Positions 8,401 through 58,727 of a stretch of 64,000 bases of DNA are shown here, piece by piece; positions within the stretch are counted from its first letter, which is position 1, and each line of letters opens with the position of its first letter. The DNA comes from Desulfoarculaceae bacterium (GTDB taxonomy: Bacteria; Desulfobacterota; Desulfobulbia; Desulfobulbales; Desulfocapsaceae). A program made the position numbers and the translations under genes. The notes below the pieces were generated by a model. It searched no databases. It was not told where the DNA came from and was given only the letters and a program-made list of their open reading frames with translations. The stretch spans positions 20,597 through 84,596 of the forward strand of contig JAHYIV010000008.1 in NCBI GenBank assembly GCA_019429465.1. Reading direction: 5' to 3'.

Positions 8401-8423
8401 CAGTTCCCTCTCCTGCTCTAACT

Positions 8424-8496
8424 CCGATGAACGGGATAAGTGCCTTTCGCAGATTATTTTCTTGCAAAAAAACAATAAAATAATCTATAAGGCACT
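8424..8496 (+). repeat. REP-like palindromic element, copy 1 (15-nt head CCGATGAACGGGATA plus a hairpin of about 58 nt)
   Basis: The sequence is near-identical to the copies at 27645, 27722, 36326 (reverse) and 58496. The arms are AGTGCCTTTCGCAGATTATTTTCTTG / (C)AATAAAATAATCTATAAGGCACT around an A-run loop. Confidence 0.85.
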
Positions 8497-8772
8497 CAAA
8501 TTCCCTTTGTCTGTACCTTTCAAATGAGATCCATTTACCATTTTCCGTAAGTCCTGGCCATATTCATCAATTTACTCTGGCAAAACTGTGACAACTACAG
8601 TAAAAATAAAGTTGTCCAGGGATGGCCTGACCGTTATTTCTGCAGACCCCGCCTCTGTCGGTTCGTGACGAATTGGCCTTCTTCCGCCGGCAGAGACGGC
8701 ATGGCTGGTATTTTTAAGAAAAAACATTGCCGCTATCAACCAACCATTCAATTTTACTTTCATCACAAAACA

Positions 8773-8952
8773 ATGGCAGAAAGAATCATAGATACGCCGC
8801 TCAACAGGCCCGTCTCTGACGAGACCCTGCTCAAGGTTGCCAAGGAAATCGTGATCAAATTCATCGAAGTAGGCCGACTGACCCCTGCCACCTTTGAACA
8901 GACCTTTGAATCCATCTACCAGACGATTAAAAAGACGGTACGCCAGGCATGA
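8773..8952 (+). CDS. hypothetical small protein (59 aa), apparently translationally coupled to mpl
   Basis: The protein MAERIIDTPLNRPVSDETLLKVAKEIVIKFIEVGRLTPATFEQTFESIYQTIKKTVRQA starts at ATG 8773. Its TGA (8950-8952) overlaps the mpl ATG (8949) as ATGA. I recognise no motif. Confidence 0.45.
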   Translation: MAERIIDTPLNRPVSDETLLKVAKEIVIKFIEVGRLTPATFEQTFESIYQTIKKTVRQA

Positions 8953-10400
8953 TCGAGCTCGACCCGAAACTCAATAAAGTACCTGAGCAGATCGGCCACA
9001 TCCACATCATGGGGATCTGCGGCACCGGCATGGCGGCGCTTGCCGGGATGCTGAAGAGCTCAGGCTACACGGTGACCGGCTCCGACAGCGGTATCTATCC
9101 ACCAATGTCTGATTTCCTCAAGGAACAAGGGATTGTGGCCGCCGGCGATTATGGCCCGCAGAACCTCAAACCCCGGCCCGACCTGGTTATTGTCGGCAAT
9201 GTCATCACCCGTAAAAATCCGGAGGCCGCCGGGCTGGCAGCAGCAGCCATCCCCTATCTTTCCTTCCCCCAGGCCCTGGCCCATTTCTTTATCAGTGGCC
9301 GGACCTCGCTGGTGGTGGCCGGTACCCACGGCAAGACCACCACCTCCTCGCTGCTGGCCGCCGCACTCCATCAGGCAGGGCTCGATCCCTCCTTTATGAT
9401 CGGCGGCATTGTCCGTGAATTTGCTGCCAATTTCCGCCTGGGGCATGGCCCCCATTTTGTGGTGGAAGGCGACGAATACGATACCGCTTTTTTTGATAAA
9501 GGGTCAAAGTTTCTCCATTATCGACCCGACATTGCCATCATCACCTCTGTTGAATTCGATCATGCCGACATCTTTGCCGATCTCGACGCCATCAAACGTT
9601 CCTTCCGCAGGTTTGTGGCCCTGCTGCCGAAAGACGGCCTGATCGTCGCCCACCTCGATGACCCGAACGTGGCCGAGGTCGTGGCTGATGCCCCCTGCGA
9701 AGTCCAGGGTTACGGCCTGAGTCCTGAGCTTTCCTGGTCGCTCGCAGGTCTCCGCGCTGAGCAGGGGGAGACTCATTTTCAGGTCCGCCACCAGGGTCAG
9801 CCCTGGGCCGATCTGACCGTCCGCCTGCCTGGCCGCCATAACTGCCTCAACAGTCTGGCCGTCACCGCCGTCCTCCACCGGATCGGTCTTGTCCCTGAAC
9901 AGATCAACAGTGCCCTCAGCAGCTTTGGCGGGATCAAACGCCGCCAGGAGGTGCGCGGGGTGGAGCGCGGCATCACGGTCATCGACGATTTTGCCCACCA
10001 TCCAACAGCGGTGCGCGAGACCCTCGGCGCCCTGAAGGCCGCCTATACCTGCCAACGGCTGGTAACGGTCTTTGAACCCCGGACCAACTCCTCCAGGCGG
10101 GCCATCTTCCAGCAGGATTACGTGAGCGCCTTTGACGCCGCCGACCTGATCCTGATCAGAGAACCGCTGCCCCTGGACAACGTTGCAGTGACAGATCTTT
10201 TTTCATCCACCCAGCTGGCCTCTGACCTGCAGGCGCGGGGGCTGGACGCCCGCACCTTTGCTGATACCGACGCCATCCTGGAACACCTCATGACCATCCT
10301 GCAGCCAGGGGATGTAGTGGCCATTCTCTCCAATGGCGGCTTTGACAACATCCACAGCCGTCTGCTGGTAAGATTACAGGAGACATCCAGCCGCATCTGA
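8949..10400 (+). CDS. mpl: UDP-N-acetylmuramate:L-alanyl-gamma-D-glutamyl-meso-diaminopimelate ligase
   Basis: HIMGICGTGMAALAGML, IYPPMS, GTHGKTTT, EGDEYDTAFFDKGSKFLHY, DDFAHHPTA and LSNGGF match Mpl rather than MurC. Confidence 0.85.
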   Translation: MIELDPKLNKVPEQIGHIHIMGICGTGMAALAGMLKSSGYTVTGSDSGIYPPMSDFLKEQGIVAAGDYGPQNLKPRPDLVIVGNVITRKNPEAAGLAAAAIPYLSFPQALAHFFISGRTSLVVAGTHGKTTTSSLLAAALHQAGLDPSFMIGGIVREFAANFRLGHGPHFVVEGDEYDTAFFDKGSKFLHYRPDIAIITSVEFDHADIFADLDAIKRSFRRFVALLPKDGLIVAHLDDPNVAEVVADAPCEVQGYGLSPELSWSLAGLRAEQGETHFQVRHQGQPWADLTVRLPGRHNCLNSLAVTAVLHRIGLVPEQINSALSSFGGIKRRQEVRGVERGITVIDDFAHHPTAVRETLGALKAAYTCQRLVTVFEPRTNSSRRAIFQQDYVSAFDAADLILIREPLPLDNVAVTDLFSSTQLASDLQARGLDARTFADTDAILEHLMTILQPGDVVAILSNGGFDNIHSRLLVRLQETSSRI

Positions 10401-27644: not shown

Positions 27645-27719
27645 CCGATGAACGGGATAAGTGCCTTTCGCAGATTATTTTCTTGCAAAAAAAAACAAGA
27701 AAATAATCTGTAAGGCACT
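27645..27719 (+). repeat. REP-like palindromic element, copy 2
   Basis: The sequence is CCGATGAACGGGATAAGTGCCTTTCGCAGATTATTTTCTTGCAAAAAAAAACAAGAAAATAATCTGTAAGGCACT. It lies directly downstream of cysS. Confidence 0.9.
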
Positions 27720-27721
27720 AA

Positions 27722-27798
27722 CCCCGAAAAACAGGATAAGTGCCTTTCGCAGATTATTTTCTTGCAAAAAAAAACAAGAAAATAATCTGTAAGGCACT
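27722..27798 (+). repeat. REP-like palindromic element, copy 3 (in tandem with copy 2)
   Basis: The hairpin is the same as in copy 2, with a diverged head (CCCCGAAAAACAGGATA). Confidence 0.9.
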
Positions 27799-27938
27799 AA
27801 ACTCCGCGGTAACGGCGTCAGATTGACGGCAAAAACGGCAGAGGAAACCGGTCATTTTCCATCCATCCGGGACCGTTGCGACAAAAACATCATGAAAGAG
27901 TGGGCATTCTTAGCGGTTCCTAAAACGGAGGTGACACC

Positions 27939-28839: not shown

Positions 28840-28913
28840 TGGGGGATGGTCTAATGGTAAGACAGCGGACTCTGACTCCGCTTATCGAGGTTCGAACCCT
28901 CGTCCCCCAGCCA
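28840..28913 (+). tRNA. tRNA-Gln (anticodon CTG)
   Basis: The acceptor stem is TGGGGGA/TCCCCCA. The anticodon stem is GCGGA/TCCGC with loop CTCTGAC. The T-arm is CGAGG-TTCGAAC-CCTCG. The 3-prime CCA is encoded. Confidence 0.9.
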
Positions 28914-29003: not shown

Positions 29004-29402
29004 TCACCTGTAAAGGCGGTCAAAGGTAGCACCATCCACCTTTCCCAGAAAAATCTTGGTGCAGATCAGGATATTGCGGGCAATATCGCCAGCCTGAATG
29101 CGCAACAACCCTTCTCGGATGATGATTTTTTTCAACAACTCCCGGCCATTCGACTCATTGTAATAAATATCCGAGTCCAGGATATCTCTCACAATCTCCG
29201 GTTCGGTTTGATCGATAATGAGCTGCAGGCCTAACCGGAAAAACCGATCTTTAACACTCGCCTGCTCTTCTTCCAGGGACAGAATGCCTCTTTTCTTGGC
29301 CTTGTCACCCATATCCTTCAGAATCCTGATAATAGGGACCAGGGATTCCTGATCCTCCTGGCTGCATGCGGCCTTGGCCGCCAAAGTAAGATCCCGTAAC
29401 AT
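29004..29402 (-). CDS. soluble protein resembling the MotA cytoplasmic loop (no TM segments)
   Basis: AKKRGILSLEEEQASVKDRFFRLGLQLIIDQTEPEIVRDILDSDI parallels the MotA loop ARREGLLALE...FL..GL..AVDG...E.IRDIM as I recall it. The 132-aa product has no hydrophobic helices. Confidence 0.45.
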   Translation of the reverse strand: MLRDLTLAAKAACSQEDQESLVPIIRILKDMGDKAKKRGILSLEEEQASVKDRFFRLGLQLIIDQTEPEIVRDILDSDIYYNESNGRELLKKIIIREGLLRIQAGDIARNILICTKIFLGKVDGATFDRLYR

Positions 29403-29560
29403 GACGCTCCTTCTTCCCTGCCTTCATTACAATATATGGTAAAATCGAGAGGGATGAGACGAACCTGATCAAACTCGCCTCATCCCTCTCACAGAACCGT
29501 ACGTCCGGGCCTCGTATACGGCTCCTGTTTATTTTCCTTCGTTTTCATACCGAAACAGAA

Positions 29561-29728
29561 ATTCCGGTGTAACTATCCAGCAGCACCTCATCTGCTTCGT
29601 CATCGGTCTGCTCATGTACGAATCAGTACACTTCGCAGGCCTCTTTCTCGCATATGAGGCACTGCTGAATAGTTACGTGACATGTGATTTGGCATTTTCC
29701 TGGCATTAAGCTGGATAGTTACATTCCG
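29561..29728. repeat. nested inverted-repeat (MITE-like) element
   Basis: The box GTAACTATCCAGC occurs once forward (29568) and twice in reverse (29653-29675 and 29709-29728). The outer arms are TTCCGGTGTAACTATCCAGC / GCTGGATAGTTACATTCCGG. Confidence 0.6.
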
Positions 29729-29794
29729 GTTTTTACAGCACCGAGGTCAAAGAGCCCTTGCAGCAGGCCGGGTTTGCCCGCTACGCTGGGCAAA

Positions 29795-29824
29795 CAAAAA
29801 GGGACGACCCAATGGGTCTCCCTT
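29795..29824 (-). terminator. factor-independent terminator downstream of the cytochrome c gene
   Basis: The minus strand reads AGGGAGACCCA-T-TGGGTCGTCCCT followed by TTTTTG. Confidence 0.65.
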
Positions 29825-29948
29825 TCTGTCAAATCAGACAACAAGCTCTGACCTTACCTGCATTCGCTTGCGTCAATTCAGTGGATGGATAGTATTCCAT
29901 TGAAGAGCCAGAAGCCACTCACAAACAAAAAAACATTCGAGATTCCCT

Positions 29949-30641
29949 CTACTTACAGGTCTTAGGGCTTACTCCATCCAGCGCATACTTGAGGACAAAC
30001 TGATGCAGATGCTCCATCTGAACAGTAGTAAAGCCGTAGGTGTCAAATTGAGGCATCGATTTTTTAAATCTTTTGAAATCAGCAGTAAAAAAACGATCCC
30101 AGGCGGCCATTGTCCGATCACCAGGGCTGATAATCGGGGCCTTATTTTTTTTATGACAGGTCAGACACCTGCGAAAGACATACCTGCCTTTGATACTATC
30201 CCCTGCCGTAAAATCGAACACTCCTGCCGCCCCCTCACCTTTGTTGACCTCTCCCGGGGTGGACACTTTTTTAGCCTTGGCCTCAATAGTTTCGCGAGCA
30301 GGGGCTTGAGCAGCAGATCCAGTCGCCTCATTGTCTGCTGATTCCTCGACCAGATAACGATGGATATTCTCCAACTGACGCTCATTGATCCCCATGACTG
30401 AAAAATCATGTTTCCTGTCCCGCAATTTTTTATAGTCATCAGTAAAAAAAGAGCGCCACCCTGCTTCGCTCTTTTCTCCTGGTTCCAGACTGCTCAAGCC
30501 CTTTGCCTTATGACAGGAACGACAGGTCTGAATAGCATATTTACCCCACAGAGCATTCCCGCCTTTTTCATCAAAAGCCTGCACATCATGAGCACCAAAC
30601 AGAAGCAGACCGGCCAAAACAGCAGTAGTCATTCGTCGCAT
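29949..30641 (-). CDS. secreted dihaem c-type cytochrome (internal duplication)
   Basis: The product has a signal peptide (MRRMTTAVLAGLLLFGAHDVQA). Two CXXCH sites (CRSCH, CLTCH) each sit in a module of about 95 aa containing W..FF..D(Y/F)K. Confidence 0.8.
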   Translation of the reverse strand: MRRMTTAVLAGLLLFGAHDVQAFDEKGGNALWGKYAIQTCRSCHKAKGLSSLEPGEKSEAGWRSFFTDDYKKLRDRKHDFSVMGINERQLENIHRYLVEESADNEATGSAAQAPARETIEAKAKKVSTPGEVNKGEGAAGVFDFTAGDSIKGRYVFRRCLTCHKKNKAPIISPGDRTMAAWDRFFTADFKRFKKSMPQFDTYGFTTVQMEHLHQFVLKYALDGVSPKTCK

Positions 30642-30825
30642 TTCTTATCCCTTTATTCTTTCTTTATTTTTTGGAGACGACTCAATACACCGAAAATGGC
30701 ATTGAGAAGACAAAACAAGACTTGTGTACCATATCGTTTCAAAAGGAGGAATACAACATCCTTGTGACATGCCCTGCTAATTCCAGTTACTCTGCCACCG
30801 AACCCTCCACCAGGGCCTTCATCAC

Positions 30826-32616
30826 TCAGACTGCACCCGGCTCATCCAGCTCGGTAAATCCCCAATAGGGATAGTCCAGGCCATAGCTGCCAACTAGACC
30901 GGGAGAGTGTTCCCGGCTGGCCACCAGCCACAGCTTATTCTGCCGCTGCTGATCAGGCGCTGAGTCCAGAGGATCCCAGTCCGGAGAAAGCACCAGGGCA
31001 TTATCGGCACTGTACTCTATATCTCCAGAGCCTTTAAACACGCCCATATGAGGCCTGTCCGTATAGCCATCTCCGCTGCCCCGCGACAATTCCGAGAGAA
31101 TAAGAAAGGAGACCTGCAGCTCATCCCGTATGGCCTCCAGTTGCCGCAGCCAGGCGTCAATCCCGGTCCGCTGTTCGCTAAAATCCTTAAAAGGCAGCTT
31201 GTGCAGGCTGTCAATCACCACCACGGTGTACTCACTCCGGGTCTCATGACGGATAAAATCAATATGACGACGCATGATCTCGGCGTTGAGTTTTCGATCG
31301 TTGACCACCCGGAAAGAGACAAGGAGCTGTTGAAGGTCCTGACAGGCACGCTCAAAATGTGGACCTGCGGCACCTGTCGCCACACCATCCTTGATGTCAC
31401 GGGTGGACAGGCGACTCAAGCGGCTCAAGGTCCGCTGATAGATCTTTTGCCGGCCATTCTCAAAATCATAGTAGAGCACCGGCACCTTTCGTCTTGCCAT
31501 CTCCGTGGCAATCTGGATGGCAAAACAGGATTTTCCGGATTTGGGGGCCCCACCGATGACGGTAATGCCATGGATGCCATCCAGCGCCTGATCAAACTTG
31601 GGAAACCCCGTCCTGAGGGCCCCATAGGCAGGACCCGACTCCAGGGCCAGTTGCGCCAGAAAATGATTATATTCCCGCCTGGGGCTGGCAAAGGGCGAGA
31701 AGGCGCTGGACGCCTGCATCATGGACAGGACAGCAGCCTTAAACCCTTTTCCTTGGTCACAGGCCAATTGCCAGAGGTTATAATTTCTGGCAAGGGCAGC
31801 AGGCCAGCGCAGCAGACGGGCCTTATAGCCGATTCCGGCCGCGAAAAGACGCGCCGCAGCCTCAGCCTCAGCACTCTTCTCCATGACAATAAAAACAGTA
31901 TGAACAAAGGCCAGACGATCCGCATCGAGTGCCTCCAGACTGTGACAATCAGGGACTGCCACCCCAGGAAAGCCAAGTTGTTTCAGGGTAAGCAGGTTTT
32001 CTTCTCCCTGACAGACAAAGAGGGCGCCGTTCTCGCAACGCTGAATGTCCTCAACATTAAAGATGTGGTACTGGTCAGCAAAAAAATGTTCGTCACCATG
32101 CCAGAAAGAGTCCTCCTGCCGCTCCGGAAAGAGACAACGGGCGGCATAGCAGTTTCCATCTTCCTGGACATACGGATAGACCAGATAACGGCCGTTATAG
32201 CCGATCTTCAGCTCGGTCAGGACGCTGCGATCAATCCCTGCCTGCTGAAACCGGGCCCGCATCTCTTCACTGAGCCGGTCCTGATAGAGCTGGATCTCAT
32301 TATTGATATTGTTGACCGGATACTCTATCTGCCGCTGGAAATAGTCACGGTCAGGATCGTAGCCCGGAACCTCGACAGGGCTGATTCCCGTCAACCTGGC
32401 AAACCAGAGCGGAAAGCCACCAGCCACACAGCGATTCAGACAGCGGAAATAGCCATAAAAGAAGCCTTCCTTATTCAGATAGACCACCAAACGGCCGGCA
32501 TACTCCCTGCCCTTCTGTTTACAGAAAGGACAGTCCGCACTCAGGTGCGATTTTTCTTCCTTGATGTTCTGCAGATGACTGAGATAAAAAAGGGCTACCG
32601 CCTCACTTTGTTCCAT
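30826..32616 (-). CDS. primase-helicase-like protein (Cys4 zinc ribbon + Toprim-like + DnaB/RecA-type ATPase; T7 gp4/Twinkle architecture)
   Basis: The zinc ribbon is CPFC...RCLNRC. The Toprim-like region has FVCQGEENLLTL. The ATPase has Walker A GGAPKSGKS, Walker B VVVIDSLHKL, and the DnaB-like motifs LSELSR and FKGSGDIEYSADNALVL. Confidence 0.75.
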   Translation of the reverse strand: MEQSEAVALFYLSHLQNIKEEKSHLSADCPFCKQKGREYAGRLVVYLNKEGFFYGYFRCLNRCVAGGFPLWFARLTGISPVEVPGYDPDRDYFQRQIEYPVNNINNEIQLYQDRLSEEMRARFQQAGIDRSVLTELKIGYNGRYLVYPYVQEDGNCYAARCLFPERQEDSFWHGDEHFFADQYHIFNVEDIQRCENGALFVCQGEENLLTLKQLGFPGVAVPDCHSLEALDADRLAFVHTVFIVMEKSAEAEAAARLFAAGIGYKARLLRWPAALARNYNLWQLACDQGKGFKAAVLSMMQASSAFSPFASPRREYNHFLAQLALESGPAYGALRTGFPKFDQALDGIHGITVIGGAPKSGKSCFAIQIATEMARRKVPVLYYDFENGRQKIYQRTLSRLSRLSTRDIKDGVATGAAGPHFERACQDLQQLLVSFRVVNDRKLNAEIMRRHIDFIRHETRSEYTVVVIDSLHKLPFKDFSEQRTGIDAWLRQLEAIRDELQVSFLILSELSRGSGDGYTDRPHMGVFKGSGDIEYSADNALVLSPDWDPLDSAPDQQRQNKLWLVASREHSPGLVGSYGLDYPYWGFTELDEPGAV

Positions 32617-32681
32617 GCCAAGGCAGCTCCTGTGGTGGAAAGATAAGAGATAAGAAAGAAATGACTGTCAGGCTGTGAGCT

Positions 32682-35600
32682 TCAGTTGCCACTGGCGACT
32701 GCTGCCAGCTGAGCTTCCTGCAGGGGATGATCGAATTGGACATGGACGGTATACTGCAGAGAGGTCACCGACTCTCCGCCAGCGCCATTCTGTCCATATA
32801 TGGCCACCACCATACCGGCCATCCCTGCTGTCAACGGAGTGCCTGGTGGCCCATCGATCTGACGGACAATCACCTTCCGCCCCAAAAGCAGACGGCCGCT
32901 TCGCTGGTGAGAAAGACGGACGGTGGCAGAGACCCCACCAATAGAGACATCACCCTTCTCACTCTGCAAGACAGTGCCTGTCTCCTGACCATTATCATCA
33001 AGAATAGCCAGGGCCAGTCTGGCTGAGAAATTCAACCGTTCCGTTGCCCTGCGGTCAATGACCATGACCTTCAGCGCATCCTGCTCCACGAGCTGTTGGC
33101 AGAAAGTCTTCAATTTTGACTCCAGCTCAGGGAAACTGTTCTGCCACTTCCGCAGCGCCTCCCGAGGCAGAACAAAGGCATCCACCGTACCGACACTTGC
33201 CGCATTAACAGTCCAGACCGATTCCTCAAAAAAAGAATCTACCCCAAAAATATCCCCGGGTCCCACTGTTCTGAGCAGGATATCATTACCGCGAGGATCC
33301 CGGAAAAACAGTTTAACCCGGCCCTTATTGACAAAGACAAGCCGCTGGTGCAGATCGCCTTGCACCACAATATTCTCATCCGGGACATAATGCACATGCT
33401 CCATGGCAGAATAGAGGCCATTAAACTCTTCGGTGCTGAGAAAATCGTAGACCTCCGCCCAGTTCTGAGTCTGGCCCTGATCGCTGCGGACGACTCTCTG
33501 TTCTTCAACCATCTCGGTTGCCTTAATAATATCATCGAGCGCCAGCGGATCAATCTCCACCAAACGCCGGCAAAGCAGCTCTGCCTGATCAAACTTATGA
33601 AGGCAGGCCACAGTGGAGATTAAGTCAAGAAGCAGAGTTTTGGCGGCCGCCCTTTTGTTCTGATCAAGCAGGAGATAGACATCATGTTCCTCGGTCAGAT
33701 TCGTTACCGGCACGTACACCTTGGTGGTCGGCCTGCCCCGCATCACCTGGGCCTGCCTGACCGCGTTCGTTGAGGTCTTACGGAGCTCTGCATGCATTTG
33801 TCTCTTTTGCCTGCGACTGGCGTCAAGCAAGACAAGCCCCCTCTGCACAGCCTGCCGGACCTCCATGTCCATGTTTTTAGGACGCCCCCCCCCACTTGCC
33901 GACAACAGCAGTAAGGCCTTTTGGGCCTGAGCAGAGCCGCTATGTCCCAGAGTCTCGCAGATACTGGTCAGGAGTGTTTTTTTTATATCCGGCGAGAAAT
34001 ACTTCTCATCCTCCAGCAGCTCGACCAGGACGCCAACGACCTCTTCATCCACCACTGAGGCCAAGGCCAGCACCACCCGAAACTTCAATTTTTCACTGAT
34101 CCGGGGCAGGGCGTCAAGCAGATACTGCTTCTTTTGTTGAGCACCGATCTTATAGATACAGGACAGGGCCTCACTCTGCACCCGCAGGTCATCATGGGAG
34201 AGATAGCCCTGCACTGCACTGGCATCTCCTTCAGCACCCGTTTCACCAAGCAACCTGATCAGATTGCGTTTCCCATACCAGGGCATGGGCTCCTGCAATC
34301 GTTCAAGAAGAAGTGAGGATAACATTGCCGCCCCCACGCCGGCCAGGATCTTCAACAGCCTGATCCGCTCTGCCCTTCTTTTACTGGTCAGCAACACATC
34401 GAGCAGAAACTGGATACCCAGCGGGCCATGCATGACAATCTTCTGACAATACATCTCCTCGACCGGTTTATCAAAGCAGCGATCAAGATAGGCTTGCAGG
34501 ATAGTTCGATCCACCCCCCTGTCCTGCACCTGGGCCACCCGTTCCCTCACCTCCGCTGATTTCCCCAAGGCCCCGGAGCGAATGGCATAAAAGAGGAGGA
34601 GGATCTTTTCAGCCAGATCCTCTCTTCCTGTTTTCTGGGCATGGGTCAAAATATCCTGCAGAATCGCCACCAACCTGGCGCAGGACTCATCAGCATCCTC
34701 CGTTCTTCTCAGACAGAAGAGAAAGGTGGGTGTTAACTTCTCCAGCCACACCCAGGAGTCCAGAGACACAAGTTTCTCTCCGACCAGGCCAAGCCCCTGC
34801 CCTGAGCGGCGACGCAACTCATTATCATCCAGCTTGAGACCACCGACAAGGGTCTGGATGATAGCGGCGGCGATATTCTCTTTTTTGTTCAGGATGAGCC
34901 GTTCAAAAGTGGCCGCGAGATGCAGCAGGATCTCTTTATTCCTTAAGCCCTCAAGACTGCCCCGAGCCAGAGCGCTTACTCCCGCCTGCAGACGTTTGGA
35001 CTGCCGCTGTTTTTCCGTCATCCCCATACTTTCAACCGCATGCAGTTGCCGCCCTTTTACCGTTGTCATCAGGTACCGGCAGGTCTCAGCCACCAGCATT
35101 CTGGACTCGGCATCACTTTGGTTCTGTAATCCGGCAAGTCTCGCTTCCTCCTGTCTCAGGAAAACAACCAGCACCTGAAAGCGTTCTTTATCAATGGCCG
35201 CGAGAAGAGCGTAAGACAGCGCCTCCCCGAAAGGAGTGACCGGGGGCTGGCAAAGGAGCAGAGCAAGGGACTCCTGATCCAGATTTGCTGCCAGCAGGGC
35301 AGCTGTCGCCGTCCCTGCTTTCCGAATCTCTTCATCCTTGAGCACGGCACTGACATTCTCAAGCAACTGGTAAAAGCCAGGAGAGCTTTGATAGACACCT
35401 TGATGCTGTATCGATTGCAGCACAAAACAGACTGCGCCGGCAAGGGTATGAGTTCCCTTGCCGGCGTCATCCAGCTCTCGCCGCATCTTCTCTCTCTGCT
35501 GTCCGTCCTGGTTGGACTCAAGCAAAAAGAGGATCTCTTCCTGCCGGACTCCAGCGGTCATCAGTTGTTGCAGAAAATCGGCAAAGCTGCGAACAACAGC

Positions 35601-36056
35601 CTGAGCTCGGCCCACCTCTTCACCCTCATCTTCCAGAAAAACAGGACCCAGGCCGGCGTTTTCCACAAAAGCAACGTGACCCCCGGACTTTTGGATCTGT
35701 TCAGGGGTCGCGGTAAAGAAAGACAATACCTGTTTAAACCTTTTGCGGTCAATCCCGCGGGCCAGGGTCATCTTCTCAAATCCGGCCTTTTCCAATGAAT
35801 CAACCAGGGACAGGGCGTCCAGCTGTTCTCGCTCTTTTCTCTCAAAAATGAAGCTATCGAGAGTCGGCACCCCTTTATGAAAACCAAAACAAAGGGCATC
35901 ATACAGACGGAGAAAAACCTTCAACTCTGAATAGGCCTTCTCTACCGCCTTGACGACCTGAACACTCTGACCAGGATAAAGGCGAAGATTAGTGATTGCC
36001 TTGTTGATAGACCGTAAGACCTCAAGAGCATGCTGCTGCCGATCAATGCTTGCCAT
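32682..36056 (-). CDS. 1124-aa HEAT/ARM-like repeat protein with C-terminal cNMP-binding-like and PilZ domains
   Basis: The N-terminal roughly 800 aa are helical repeats. A cNMP-type beta-roll follows (VVQGDLHQRLVFVNKGRVKLFF...GPGDIFG). The PilZ motifs RRATER and DVSIGG are present. Confidence 0.7.
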   Translation of the reverse strand: MASIDRQQHALEVLRSINKAITNLRLYPGQSVQVVKAVEKAYSELKVFLRLYDALCFGFHKGVPTLDSFIFERKEREQLDALSLVDSLEKAGFEKMTLARGIDRKRFKQVLSFFTATPEQIQKSGGHVAFVENAGLGPVFLEDEGEEVGRAQAVVRSFADFLQQLMTAGVRQEEILFLLESNQDGQQREKMRRELDDAGKGTHTLAGAVCFVLQSIQHQGVYQSSPGFYQLLENVSAVLKDEEIRKAGTATAALLAANLDQESLALLLCQPPVTPFGEALSYALLAAIDKERFQVLVVFLRQEEARLAGLQNQSDAESRMLVAETCRYLMTTVKGRQLHAVESMGMTEKQRQSKRLQAGVSALARGSLEGLRNKEILLHLAATFERLILNKKENIAAAIIQTLVGGLKLDDNELRRRSGQGLGLVGEKLVSLDSWVWLEKLTPTFLFCLRRTEDADESCARLVAILQDILTHAQKTGREDLAEKILLLFYAIRSGALGKSAEVRERVAQVQDRGVDRTILQAYLDRCFDKPVEEMYCQKIVMHGPLGIQFLLDVLLTSKRRAERIRLLKILAGVGAAMLSSLLLERLQEPMPWYGKRNLIRLLGETGAEGDASAVQGYLSHDDLRVQSEALSCIYKIGAQQKKQYLLDALPRISEKLKFRVVLALASVVDEEVVGVLVELLEDEKYFSPDIKKTLLTSICETLGHSGSAQAQKALLLLSASGGGRPKNMDMEVRQAVQRGLVLLDASRRQKRQMHAELRKTSTNAVRQAQVMRGRPTTKVYVPVTNLTEEHDVYLLLDQNKRAAAKTLLLDLISTVACLHKFDQAELLCRRLVEIDPLALDDIIKATEMVEEQRVVRSDQGQTQNWAEVYDFLSTEEFNGLYSAMEHVHYVPDENIVVQGDLHQRLVFVNKGRVKLFFRDPRGNDILLRTVGPGDIFGVDSFFEESVWTVNAASVGTVDAFVLPREALRKWQNSFPELESKLKTFCQQLVEQDALKVMVIDRRATERLNFSARLALAILDDNGQETGTVLQSEKGDVSIGGVSATVRLSHQRSGRLLLGRKVIVRQIDGPPGTPLTAGMAGMVVAIYGQNGAGGESVTSLQYTVHVQFDHPLQEAQLAAVASGN

Positions 36057-36325
36057 AAAATACCTTGTCTGCTTTTTTCAAGCACTCCTGTTTATCCAAT
36101 GCCCCACAACCTTGCATCTATATGTCGCCATCCCTTGAGCCGAGCCAATCGCGTCCAGGGAGAATTTCTTAAAAGATGTCAACAAACAAGTAGTGTCCTT
36201 CGTGGCCCATGGACGGCTCAGTCGCTTGACACAGGGGAGGGATAAGCGCAGCCTGACCCTTTCGTTACAGCAACCGATACCATCCTGATCCAGCTGACCA
36301 CAACAGTATTTATTGTCAACAGCTT

Positions 36326-36397
36326 AGTGCCTTACAGATTCTTTTCTTGTTTTTTTCAAGAAAACAATCTGCGAAATGCACTTATCCCGTTCATCGG
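36326..36397 (-). repeat. REP-like palindromic element, copy 4 (reverse orientation)
   Basis: The sequence AGTGCCTTACAGATTCTTTTCTTGTTTTTTTCAAGAAAACAATCTGCGAAATGCACTTATCCCGTTCATCGG is the reverse complement of the family consensus. Confidence 0.85.
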
Positions 36398-36539
36398 AGT
36401 TAGATCATTACCCTTACTGGCCTACCACAGGAAAAATACAAAAGTCAAGAAATGCGGCAGATTATCTCATCCTTCAACAACAGCCGTCAATCCCTGAGAT
36501 GACCTGAGGGTCTGATGTTGATCCTGGCAGCCAAGGCCA

Positions 36540-37148
36540 TTACAATGAAACGGCAATGACACCATACTCTTCAAGCATGACCAGAAGTTCAGACAACGGC
36601 AAGCCCACCACGTTCGAATACGAGCCCATGATTTCCTTGACCAGGAAAGCACCCTGCCCCTGAATCCCGTAGGAACCAGCCTTGTCCATGGGCTCGCCGG
36701 TTGCCACATAAGCCCGGGCCACGTCCTCGGAAAACGAGCTGAAAACAACACGGGTACTCACCGACCGGACAGCAGCGATTCCGTTCCGGCGACAGGCGAG
36801 ACAGATCCCGGTCAGCACCTGATGTTCGTTCCCGGAGAGTTGCATCAGCATGGACACGGCACCGGCACGGTCTCCAGGTTTTCCAAGCACGGAATCAGCA
36901 AGACTGACCACCGTATCGGCAGCCACAATCCAGCTGTCGTGATAAAGCTCCATAACAGACCTGGCCTTTTCTGCAGCCATGCGGCGGACAAAGTCCTCCG
37001 GTGTTTCTGCCGGCAAGAGCTGTTCAACAATGTCAGCCGCATGGACACGATAGTCCAGACCAAGATCCTGAAAATAACTCTGCCTCCTGGGTGAAGATGA
37101 TGCCAGGATTAAAGGCTTAAGGGTATGATAGATTGGTCGCTGATTCAT
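36540..37148 (-). CDS. maf: Maf-like nucleoside triphosphate pyrophosphatase
   Basis: LILASSSPRR, the later DKAG.YGIQG motif (MDKAGSYGIQG), and NVVGLP are present. The start is either ATG 37148 or the ORF-track position 37187. Confidence 0.85.
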   Translation of the reverse strand: MNQRPIYHTLKPLILASSSPRRQSYFQDLGLDYRVHAADIVEQLLPAETPEDFVRRMAAEKARSVMELYHDSWIVAADTVVSLADSVLGKPGDRAGAVSMLMQLSGNEHQVLTGICLACRRNGIAAVRSVSTRVVFSSFSEDVARAYVATGEPMDKAGSYGIQGQGAFLVKEIMGSYSNVVGLPLSELLVMLEEYGVIAVSL

Positions 37149-37216
37149 CTCTGACAATGACCCTGCCCATGCCGGGACAGGTGGCAATATGTCGCTTGCT
37201 GCCCGGTGAGGCGTTA

Positions 37217-58471: not shown

Positions 58472-58495
58472 AGCAATAAAGAATTATAATTAACC

Positions 58496-58569
58496 CCGAT
58501 GAACGGGATAAGTGCCTTACGCAGATTATTTTCTGGAAAAAAAAACAAGAAAACAACCTGTAAGGCACT
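58496..58569 (+). repeat. REP-like palindromic element, copy 5
   Basis: The sequence CCGATGAACGGGATAAGTGCCTTACGCAGATTATTTTCTGGAAAAAAAAACAAGAAAACAACCTGTAAGGCACT lies between dnaK and trpS. Confidence 0.85.
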
Positions 58570-58727
58570 AAACAGGGGAAGAATGGATAAGACCAGTACG
58601 TTCAGGGACTTTGAAAGTAGGTACCATACAGTAAAAATAAAAAAAAGGGGAGTGAGAAAAACCTCTTTCCTCACCCCCCCTTTTTTAGACTTTGCCAGAA
58701 CAACGATCTGACCTGGAATCAGCCCTC

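Follow-up and report, generated by a model that had tools for sequence, protein, structure and literature searches.

We analyzed a window of 64,000 nucleotides (nt) from Desulfoarculaceae bacterium, the window being the whole stretch of DNA under study (positions 20,597-84,596 of contig JAHYIV010000008.1, assembly GCA_019429465.1, forward strand), in which four minus-strand open reading frames (ORFs) encode a giant protein with HEAT repeats, a cyclic nucleotide monophosphate (cNMP)-binding fold and a PilZ domain (hereafter the giant), a gp4/Twinkle-like ATPase, a secreted dihaem c-type cytochrome and a free-standing copy of the MotA cytoplasmic domain (Table 1). An earlier note on this DNA had reported these four ORFs with gaps of 65 nt (giant to ATPase) and 184 nt (ATPase to cytochrome), a flanking tRNA-Gln, a copy of a repetitive extragenic palindromic (REP) repeat and a terminator after the cytochrome gene, and all of these were recovered, the REP copy as an 80-nt repeat and the terminator as a hairpin with a T-run; its domain assignments for the four proteins likewise agreed with Pfam and NCBIfam profile matches, alignments and structure matches. 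The genes for the giant and the ATPase look like a conserved two-gene operon and the real unit of the locus, judging from their sequences and arrangement across genomes.

Table 1. Coordinates of the operon genes, their domains and the surrounding features (window positions, except in the last row, which gives positions within the named loci; aa, amino acids)
Feature	Position	Strand	Remarks
Giant scaffold gene	32682-36056	-	ORF; 1124 aa
cNMP-binding-fold domain of the giant	33081-33461	-	Trp948 in place of the Arg of cAMP/cGMP binders
PilZ domain of the giant	32718-33053	-	RRATER (RRxxxR), DVSIGG (DxSxGG)
Giant-ATPase spacer	32617-32681	-	65 nt; AGGAG ribosome-binding site; no hairpin
gp4/Twinkle-like ATPase gene	30826-32616	-	ORF; 596 aa
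Degenerate Toprim core of the ATPase	31807-32049	-	CQGEEN, MEKSAE and NLWQL, compared with EGExD, DxD and the third acidic motif
maf, Maf-like nucleotide pyrophosphatase	36540-37187	-	Pfam Maf, E 5e-58; conserved upstream neighbor
Secreted dihaem c-type cytochrome gene	29949-30641	-	ORF; 230 aa; clade-restricted neighbor, outside the core
Terminator-like hairpin with T-run, 3' of the cytochrome gene	29806-29818	-	
Gene for the free-standing MotA cytoplasmic domain	29004-29402	-	ORF; 132 aa; unlinked to the operon
Lineage-specific junction segment	29417-29792	.	376 nt; absent from the relatives that match either flank
REP-like interspersed repeat in the maf-giant spacer	36324-36404	.	~80 nt
tRNA-Gln(CTG)	28840-28913	+	
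Extra gene of some Desulfocapsaceae	L042 13368-14387; L045 13376-15121; L046 13499-15349; L060 5415-7226; L165 4866-6740		

An alignment of the giant was scanned against one genome per species, which returned 117 relatives, and the best 80 of these 117 loci were all from Desulfobulbales. The ATPase gene lay directly downstream of the giant gene in 75 of the 76 species-level Desulfobulbales loci that could be evaluated, the sole exception (L013) being a scaffold that holds 323 N. The spacer between the two genes had a median length of 53 nt across 87 loci, and in 13 of these the two reading frames share 4 or 11 nt, a start/stop codon overlap that suggests translational coupling of giant and ATPase. 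Gaps of more than 500 nt were seen in nine loci and were filled, in all those examined, by a paralogue of a module of the giant. The maf gene was present upstream on the same strand in 71 of 71 loci, and the whole DUF362-SDR-maf-giant-ATPase block (SDR: short-chain dehydrogenase/reductase) was syntenic across Desulfobulbales. Identities of the giant and of the ATPase to the window copies co-varied (r = 0.97; 79 loci), and no terminator-like site was found in the 65-nt spacer of the window. The marks of a conserved operon, namely a shared strand, a short or overlapping spacer and adjacency in distant genomes, were found for this pair. Throughout Desulfobulbales it sits at one fixed site in the chromosome, downstream of maf, and appears to be passed on by vertical inheritance. 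The literature searched contained no description of a pairing of PilZ, HEAT and cNMP domains with a DnaB-like protein or of PilZ and c-di-GMP (cyclic di-GMP) with one, and two PilZ surveys are silent on architectures with HEAT, cNMP or helicase domains; the giant-ATPase operon is uncharacterized and order-wide.

From its N to its C terminus, the giant comprises an alpha/beta domain (aa 1-140), a HEAT/ARM solenoid of ~700 aa (~158-860), a degenerate cNMP domain (866-992) and a PilZ domain (1002-1113). This order was reproduced in the AlphaFold model (predicted local distance difference test score, pLDDT, 77.8), in which a confident N-terminal alpha/beta domain leads into an extended helical solenoid and then into a beta-roll and a beta-barrel, the last spanning aa 1008-1108. 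Pfam HEAT_2 matched residues 582-650 within the solenoid, and Foldseek searches with the giant returned only generic HEAT solenoids (SF3B1, PP2A-A, importin-beta, CAND1 and Pds5B) and cyclic-nucleotide-binding domains. No Pfam family was found for the N-terminal 147 aa, and no YcgR N-terminal (PilZN) domain was found anywhere in the giant by profile search; it is the cNMP domain and a helical linker that precede PilZ.

The cNMP-binding fold was assigned by Pfam cNMP_binding (PF00027) over residues 888-970 (54.4 bits; cutoff 27.5), and its profile matched structures of PKG and CRP, with fold matches to 2pqq and 3h3u. The phosphate-binding cassette of the giant reads FGVDSFFEESVWTVNAAS and does not carry the canonical combination of a conserved Gly-Glu and an Arg. 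Residue W948, which hardly varies across 15 aligned orthologues of the giant (32-77% identity), occupies the position of the phosphate-binding Arg, as read from the alignment by inspection rather than by structural superposition, and canonical cyclic-mononucleotide binding by this domain is therefore not expected. In the same alignment the PilZ residues R1002, R1003, R1007, G1040 and G1041 show no variation, and D1036 almost none; the giant thus carries the RxxxR followed by D/NxSxxG that marks PilZ (PF07238), and the Pfam PilZ model matched 8 of the 15 orthologues, with a best E-value of 1.5e-6.

In some Desulfocapsaceae the giant and ATPase genes are separated by an additional gene that encodes 339-616 aa (Table 1), a paralogue of the C-terminal HEAT-cNMP-PilZ module of the giant with its PilZ motifs intact. 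The longer versions of this paralogue have an additional N-terminal domain of ~100 aa, suspected to be roadblock-like, for which no Pfam family was found. A shortened giant of ~490 aa, covering profile positions 352-461 and 788-1117 only, was seen ahead of the ATPase in one metagenomic locus (L157, 6403-7875).

The ATPase consists of a Cys4 zinc ribbon (aa 29-63), a degenerate Toprim/primase-like region (~100-300) and a DnaB-type RecA ATPase domain (330-590). Pfam DnaB_C matched residues 334-545 (E 4e-25), the phage primase/helicase family phrog_239 matched residues 26-569, and the ribbon cysteines C29, C32, C59 and C63 were invariant in the ATPase alignment. With the AlphaFold model (pLDDT 74.5) as query, Foldseek returned human Twinkle (7t8b) at an E-value of 1e-18 over ~600 columns and T7 gp4 (5ikn, 6n9w and 1q57) at template modeling (TM) scores of up to 0.67 (0.52-0.67 for 5ikn and 6n9w) over ~500-600 columns, both ahead of DnaB. 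A zinc ribbon, a Toprim primase fold and a RecA-type hexameric helicase domain are thereby found in one chain, in the domain order of T7 gp4 and Twinkle. The C-terminal domain is of the DnaB_C family and aligns to solved DnaB structures across both the Walker motifs and the region of the arginine finger, whereas the DnaB N-terminal domain is missing and a primase-like half stands in its place. Assignment as a DnaB orthologue was rejected, the NCBIfam DnaB models (TIGR00665 and related) scoring 71-82 bits against cutoffs of 385-499 and matching only the C-terminal domain.

Among ~138 chromosomal relatives of the ATPase (at least 42% identity), the Toprim positions read xGExN, NxxE and NLWQL, and the acidic residues for primer synthesis are lacking; 9 relatives on mobile elements (at most 30% identity) retain EGEKD, FDNDExG and DxxDL together with a CHC2 zinc finger. 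The motif register was taken from an hhalign comparison of the ATPase family with one sequence, that of T7 gp4, which gave a probability of 4% and was used for register only, and a multiple alignment with the intact-primase relatives agreed with it. Essentially all of the ~138 members retain the NTPase motifs GxPKxGKS, YDFENG, DSLH, SELSR and ASRE, with isolated conservative substitutions, leaving intact the Walker A motif, the catalytic Glu (YDFENG), Walker B (DSLH) and the Arg of ASRE. The loss of the Toprim acidic residues and the retention of the RecA-type site together indicate a primase-dead ring ATPase of the gp4/Twinkle type, whose pseudo-primase domain is still under constraint (35 of 205 columns at least 95% conserved). 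We regard the ATPase as an apparent domesticated, primase-dead descendant of the primase-helicases of mobile elements.

Two of the intact-primase relatives, on the metagenome contigs L097 and L099, are carried by elements whose assembly shows a ~10.3-kb unit twice in tandem, so these are probably circular plasmids or phage-like elements; each encodes a ~260-aa protein that appears recombinase-like by eye.

Metazoan Twinkle offers a precedent in that its primase catalytic residues are lost and its helicase site is kept, as in the ATPase; PMC3610141 describes it as a gp4 homologue whose primase activity was lost via changes in the primase domain. The ATPase differs from T7 gp4 and Twinkle in being bacterial and chromosomal, conserved in Desulfobulbales and further relatives and, in Desulfobulbales, in sharing an operon with a PilZ/HEAT scaffold; it is only ~13-21% identical to gp4 and, in contrast to human Twinkle, has retained an invariant Cys4 ribbon. 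At the phosphate-sensor position it carries an invariant Glu (SELSR), where DnaB has Gln and gp4 has His. Homologues in public genomes are annotated as "replicative DNA helicase" or "KaiC/FlaH", and both labels are misleading. In gp4-type proteins the Cys4 ribbon is an element that reads the DNA template.

The cytochrome is built of two homologous halves with one CXXCH each (CRSCH and CLTCH), begins with a signal-like sequence ending in VQA as read in translation, and matches Cytochrome_CBB3 (PF13442) at 29.7 bits against a cutoff of 27, with the features of a class I-type cytochrome c. Its gene follows the ATPase gene in 21 of 62 loci, distributed as 12/16, 9/16 and 0/30 over three clades of decreasing relatedness, and a DUF3373 gene lies further downstream wherever the cytochrome is present. 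The cytochrome is a clade-specific neighbor and not part of the core. Secreted proteins of 581-589 aa encoded beside metagenomic ATPase genes that lack a giant were tested as DUF3373 homologues and were not homologous.

The 132-aa protein matched MotP, MotA and PomA models at E-values of 1e-14 to 1e-10, always over stator residues ~68-138, and the profile of its family matched solved MotA/PomA chains (6ysf and 8ucs) at 3e-11. Its residues 15-83 align to MotA 71-139, the loop between transmembrane helices TM2 and TM3, and a weak alignment places residues 87-111 on the tail that follows TM4 (MotA 216-238). The charge motif KKRGxLSLE, with Glu44 and the basic residue kept, aligns to KARREGLLSLE of solved MotA and is presumably the counterpart of the FliG-contacting R90/E98 region of E. 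coli MotA. Pfam MotA_ExbB (PF01618) scored 15.3 bits against a cutoff of 22.9 and NCBIfam MotA/MotP 52-54 bits against cutoffs of 340-394, and only the cytoplasmic segments align; BLASTP of the 132-aa protein against E. coli MotA gave no significant match. Unlike MotA and PomA, the protein lacks the four transmembrane helices and the proton-channel part, and it is encoded as a stand-alone gene in a variable neighborhood. With both loop and tail aligned and no transmembrane helix, it corresponds to the whole cytoplasmic domain of the stator A subunit without its membrane helices, and is a real soluble copy of that domain.

This family is common, with 583 matches at 72-90% identity across Desulfobulbales, and the neighborhood of its gene differs in every clade examined. 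In 80 genomes (1.43 Mb of sequence) the gene was never found within 10 kb of the giant. The closest relatives carry one block composed of an old yellow enzyme (OYE) reductase, the MotA domain, tRNA-Gln, memo, cysS, MFS and mutY, and hold the maf-giant-ATPase-cytochrome-DUF3373 block elsewhere, the two being on separate contigs in the metagenome-assembled genomes (MAGs) JAQVER and JAHJKP. At the nucleotide level, homology to the relative on the cytochrome side (L167) ends at 29793 and homology to relatives on the MotA side begins at 29416. These breakpoints and the unique 376-nt segment between them point to a lineage-specific rearrangement as the origin of the adjacency of the MotA-domain and cytochrome genes, so that the MotA-domain gene is unrelated to the operon and was brought alongside it. 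In the junction segment, two perfectly matching 14-nt arms (29568-29581 and 29710-29723) form an inverted repeat with 128 nt between them, near a 16-nt hairpin (29447-29490); the segment may be the remnant of a small mobile element. The earlier note had found a PilZ scaffold next to a free MotA loop suggestive and had proposed co-localization of all four genes across taxa as a check. The former finds no genomic support, since the MotA-domain gene never lies within 10 kb of the giant gene and its adjacency stems from a rearrangement, and since the giant is without a YcgR-type N-terminal domain; as to the latter, co-localization held for giant and ATPase (75/76), and failed for the cytochrome gene (21/62, two subclades) and for the MotA-domain gene (0/80).

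Relatives of the 132-aa protein (L084, L085 and L168-L172) are annotated as hypothetical or, misleadingly, as MotA, and in the literature searched nothing relevant was found on soluble paralogues of the MotA loop. In a Desulfocapsaceae MAG (L168) the MotA-domain gene and a stand-alone 134-aa PilZ gene (8740-9144, minus strand) are convergent, and just upstream there is a conjugative element (TraK/E/L and an integrase); the sister genomes L169 and L170 have neither the PilZ gene nor the element. In Desulfobulbus propionicus (L084), a dihaem cytochrome (9067-9585; Pfam DHC) is encoded two genes downstream of the MotA-domain gene, a proximity that is probably coincidental though it echoes the arrangement in the window.

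Beyond these genes, the REP-like repeat in the maf-giant spacer lies near a promoter-like site (36461-36490) and has four further copies in the window (8417-8496, 27645-27721, 27734-27800 and 58491-58571), belonging to a family of ~80-nt intergenic repeats that are 89-93% identical and have an internal palindrome. A 532-aa ORF (31048-32646, plus strand) runs antisense through nearly the whole ATPase gene and is assumed to be a non-coding by-product of mechanical ORF listing.

We propose that the operon encodes a c-di-GMP-responsive scaffold that controls a domesticated hexameric nucleic-acid motor, a reading that we favor and hold at slightly less than even confidence. The giant would bind c-di-GMP via its PilZ domain and, through its solenoid and N-terminal domain, would hold or release the hexameric ATPase, the contact probably being made at the conserved pseudo-primase domain of the latter; in this way the level of the second messenger would be linked to how a nucleic-acid translocase is loaded, or how active it is, as the chromosome is replicated, repaired or maintained. 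Analogues are found in the PilZ receptors of c-di-GMP that regulate partner ATPases or motors, for example YcgR on MotA/FliG and the PilZ-FimX-PilB system. Like these, the giant ends in a PilZ domain that carries RxxxR and DxSxxG, and its gene lies beside that of an ATPase that it could regulate; the giant differs in combining a HEAT solenoid, a degenerate cNMP domain and PilZ in 1124 aa with no YcgR-N/PilZN domain, and in having as its partner an ATPase of the DnaB/gp4 type instead of a secretion ATPase or a stator. More tentatively, and with some doubt, we suggest that in Desulfobulbales a domesticated phage-type hexameric helicase has come under the direct control of a second messenger, that the giant is a HEAT adaptor that senses c-di-GMP with PilZ, and possibly another ligand with its altered cNMP fold, and that it loads, parks or releases a primase-dead motor on the chromosome with the pseudo-primase domain as docking surface, linking lifestyle signaling to replication, restart or repair.

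Several observations weigh against the proposed c-di-GMP scaffold and motor. The C-terminal 132 aa of the giant scored 19.2 bits with Pfam PilZ (E 0.0016; profile positions 1-94 of 102), below the cutoff of 22.5, and the ground for giving the ATPase a DNA-related role is its family membership. Scanning metagenomes with the ATPase alignment returned chromosomal-type ATPases at 51-60% identity, 11 of which have a giant upstream, while 18, all with 3.5 kb or more of sequence upstream, have no giant detectable by tblastn or by the giant-alignment profile; in three of these (L106, L117 and L152) the gene immediately upstream of the ATPase is maf, the giant being absent. The ATPase is therefore not strictly dependent on the giant. 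The maf-ATPase arrangement suggests a linkage older than the arrival of the giant, and with the giant-less loci it makes the ATPase the apparently older gene, to which the giant was evidently added between maf and ATPase in Desulfobulbales. This history is also the starting point for reading the pair as inherited synteny and nothing else, the giant being an independent c-di-GMP effector that happened to land between maf and a more ancient ATPase gene. Synteny across the order extends to the entire DUF362-SDR-maf-giant-ATPase block, and neighbors can therefore stay conserved without a common function. We think this improbable, as the pair persists though the giant diverges to 30% identity, the start and stop codons overlap in 13 loci, inserted paralogues of the C-terminal module of the giant always lie between giant and ATPase in the loci examined, and the giant occurs without the ATPase in no evaluable locus save the N-containing scaffold. 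A functional coupling of the two could also take another form, with the ATPase acting as a KaiC/RecA-like signaling or remodeling ATPase that is read out via the HEAT scaffold and is not a DNA motor. The lost primase chemistry, the invariant Glu in SELSR and weak matches to P-loops of the KaiC, FlaH and GvpD type, by which the Joint Genome Institute (JGI) also annotates homologues, all speak for it. This alternative is nonetheless unlikely, given that DnaB, gp4 and Twinkle are by far the best sequence and fold matches, over the full length including zinc ribbon and primase-like domain, that the Cys4 ribbon is invariant, and that the KaiC-type match reaches an E-value of 3.5e-4 compared with 4e-25 for DnaB_C.

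The descent of the ATPase from mobile-element primase-helicases, whose intact-primase relatives sit on ~10-kb elements with recombinase-like genes, raises the question of a mobile or anti-phage defense module built around a phage-type primase-helicase. PADLOC-DB gave weak, P-loop-level matches for the ATPase (mad8, E 4e-6; a DRT DnaG-like model, E 3e-3) and no meaningful match for the giant, the cytochrome or the MotA-domain protein. The site of the pair is fixed in the chromosome and its divergence tracks clades, consistent with vertical inheritance; no integrase, toxin or nuclease gene was seen in three relatives with annotated neighborhoods, no close homologue was found among 72,556 plasmids and 50,697 phages, presence is uniform, and base composition and GC content across the cluster stay within the range of the remaining window, all of which makes a defense or mobile module very improbable. 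The least credible reading, in our judgment, is the four-gene system, in which the PilZ scaffold and a free MotA loop would follow a YcgR-like logic together with a gp4-like ATPase and a periplasmic cytochrome. The genes are indeed co-oriented and contiguous in the window, the 132-aa protein truly is a MotA cytoplasmic domain with the basic residue and Glu44 of its charge motif, and one stand-alone PilZ gene (L168) does adjoin a MotA-domain gene. Against these stand the absence of the MotA-domain gene from the 10 kb around the giant in all 80 genomes, its variable neighborhood and the separate contigs in JAQVER and JAHJKP; the unique junction and the terminator-like hairpin between the MotA-domain and cytochrome genes; the absence of the cytochrome from 41 of 62 loci; and a giant without a YcgR-type N-terminal domain. 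All four of these explanations are less well supported than that of a c-di-GMP-responsive scaffold controlling a nucleic-acid motor.

A conserved soluble MotA cytoplasmic domain is a second, independent finding, and the 132-aa protein could be a soluble mimic of the stator. As for the operon, most effectors of c-di-GMP serve motility, adhesion, secretion or transcription, and a receptor dedicated to a motor of the DnaB/gp4 class would, if the proposed scaffold-motor reading is true, extend c-di-GMP signaling to a DNA machine. The ATPase would then also provide a bacterial parallel to Twinkle, as a phage primase-helicase recruited by the cell after the loss of its primase chemistry.

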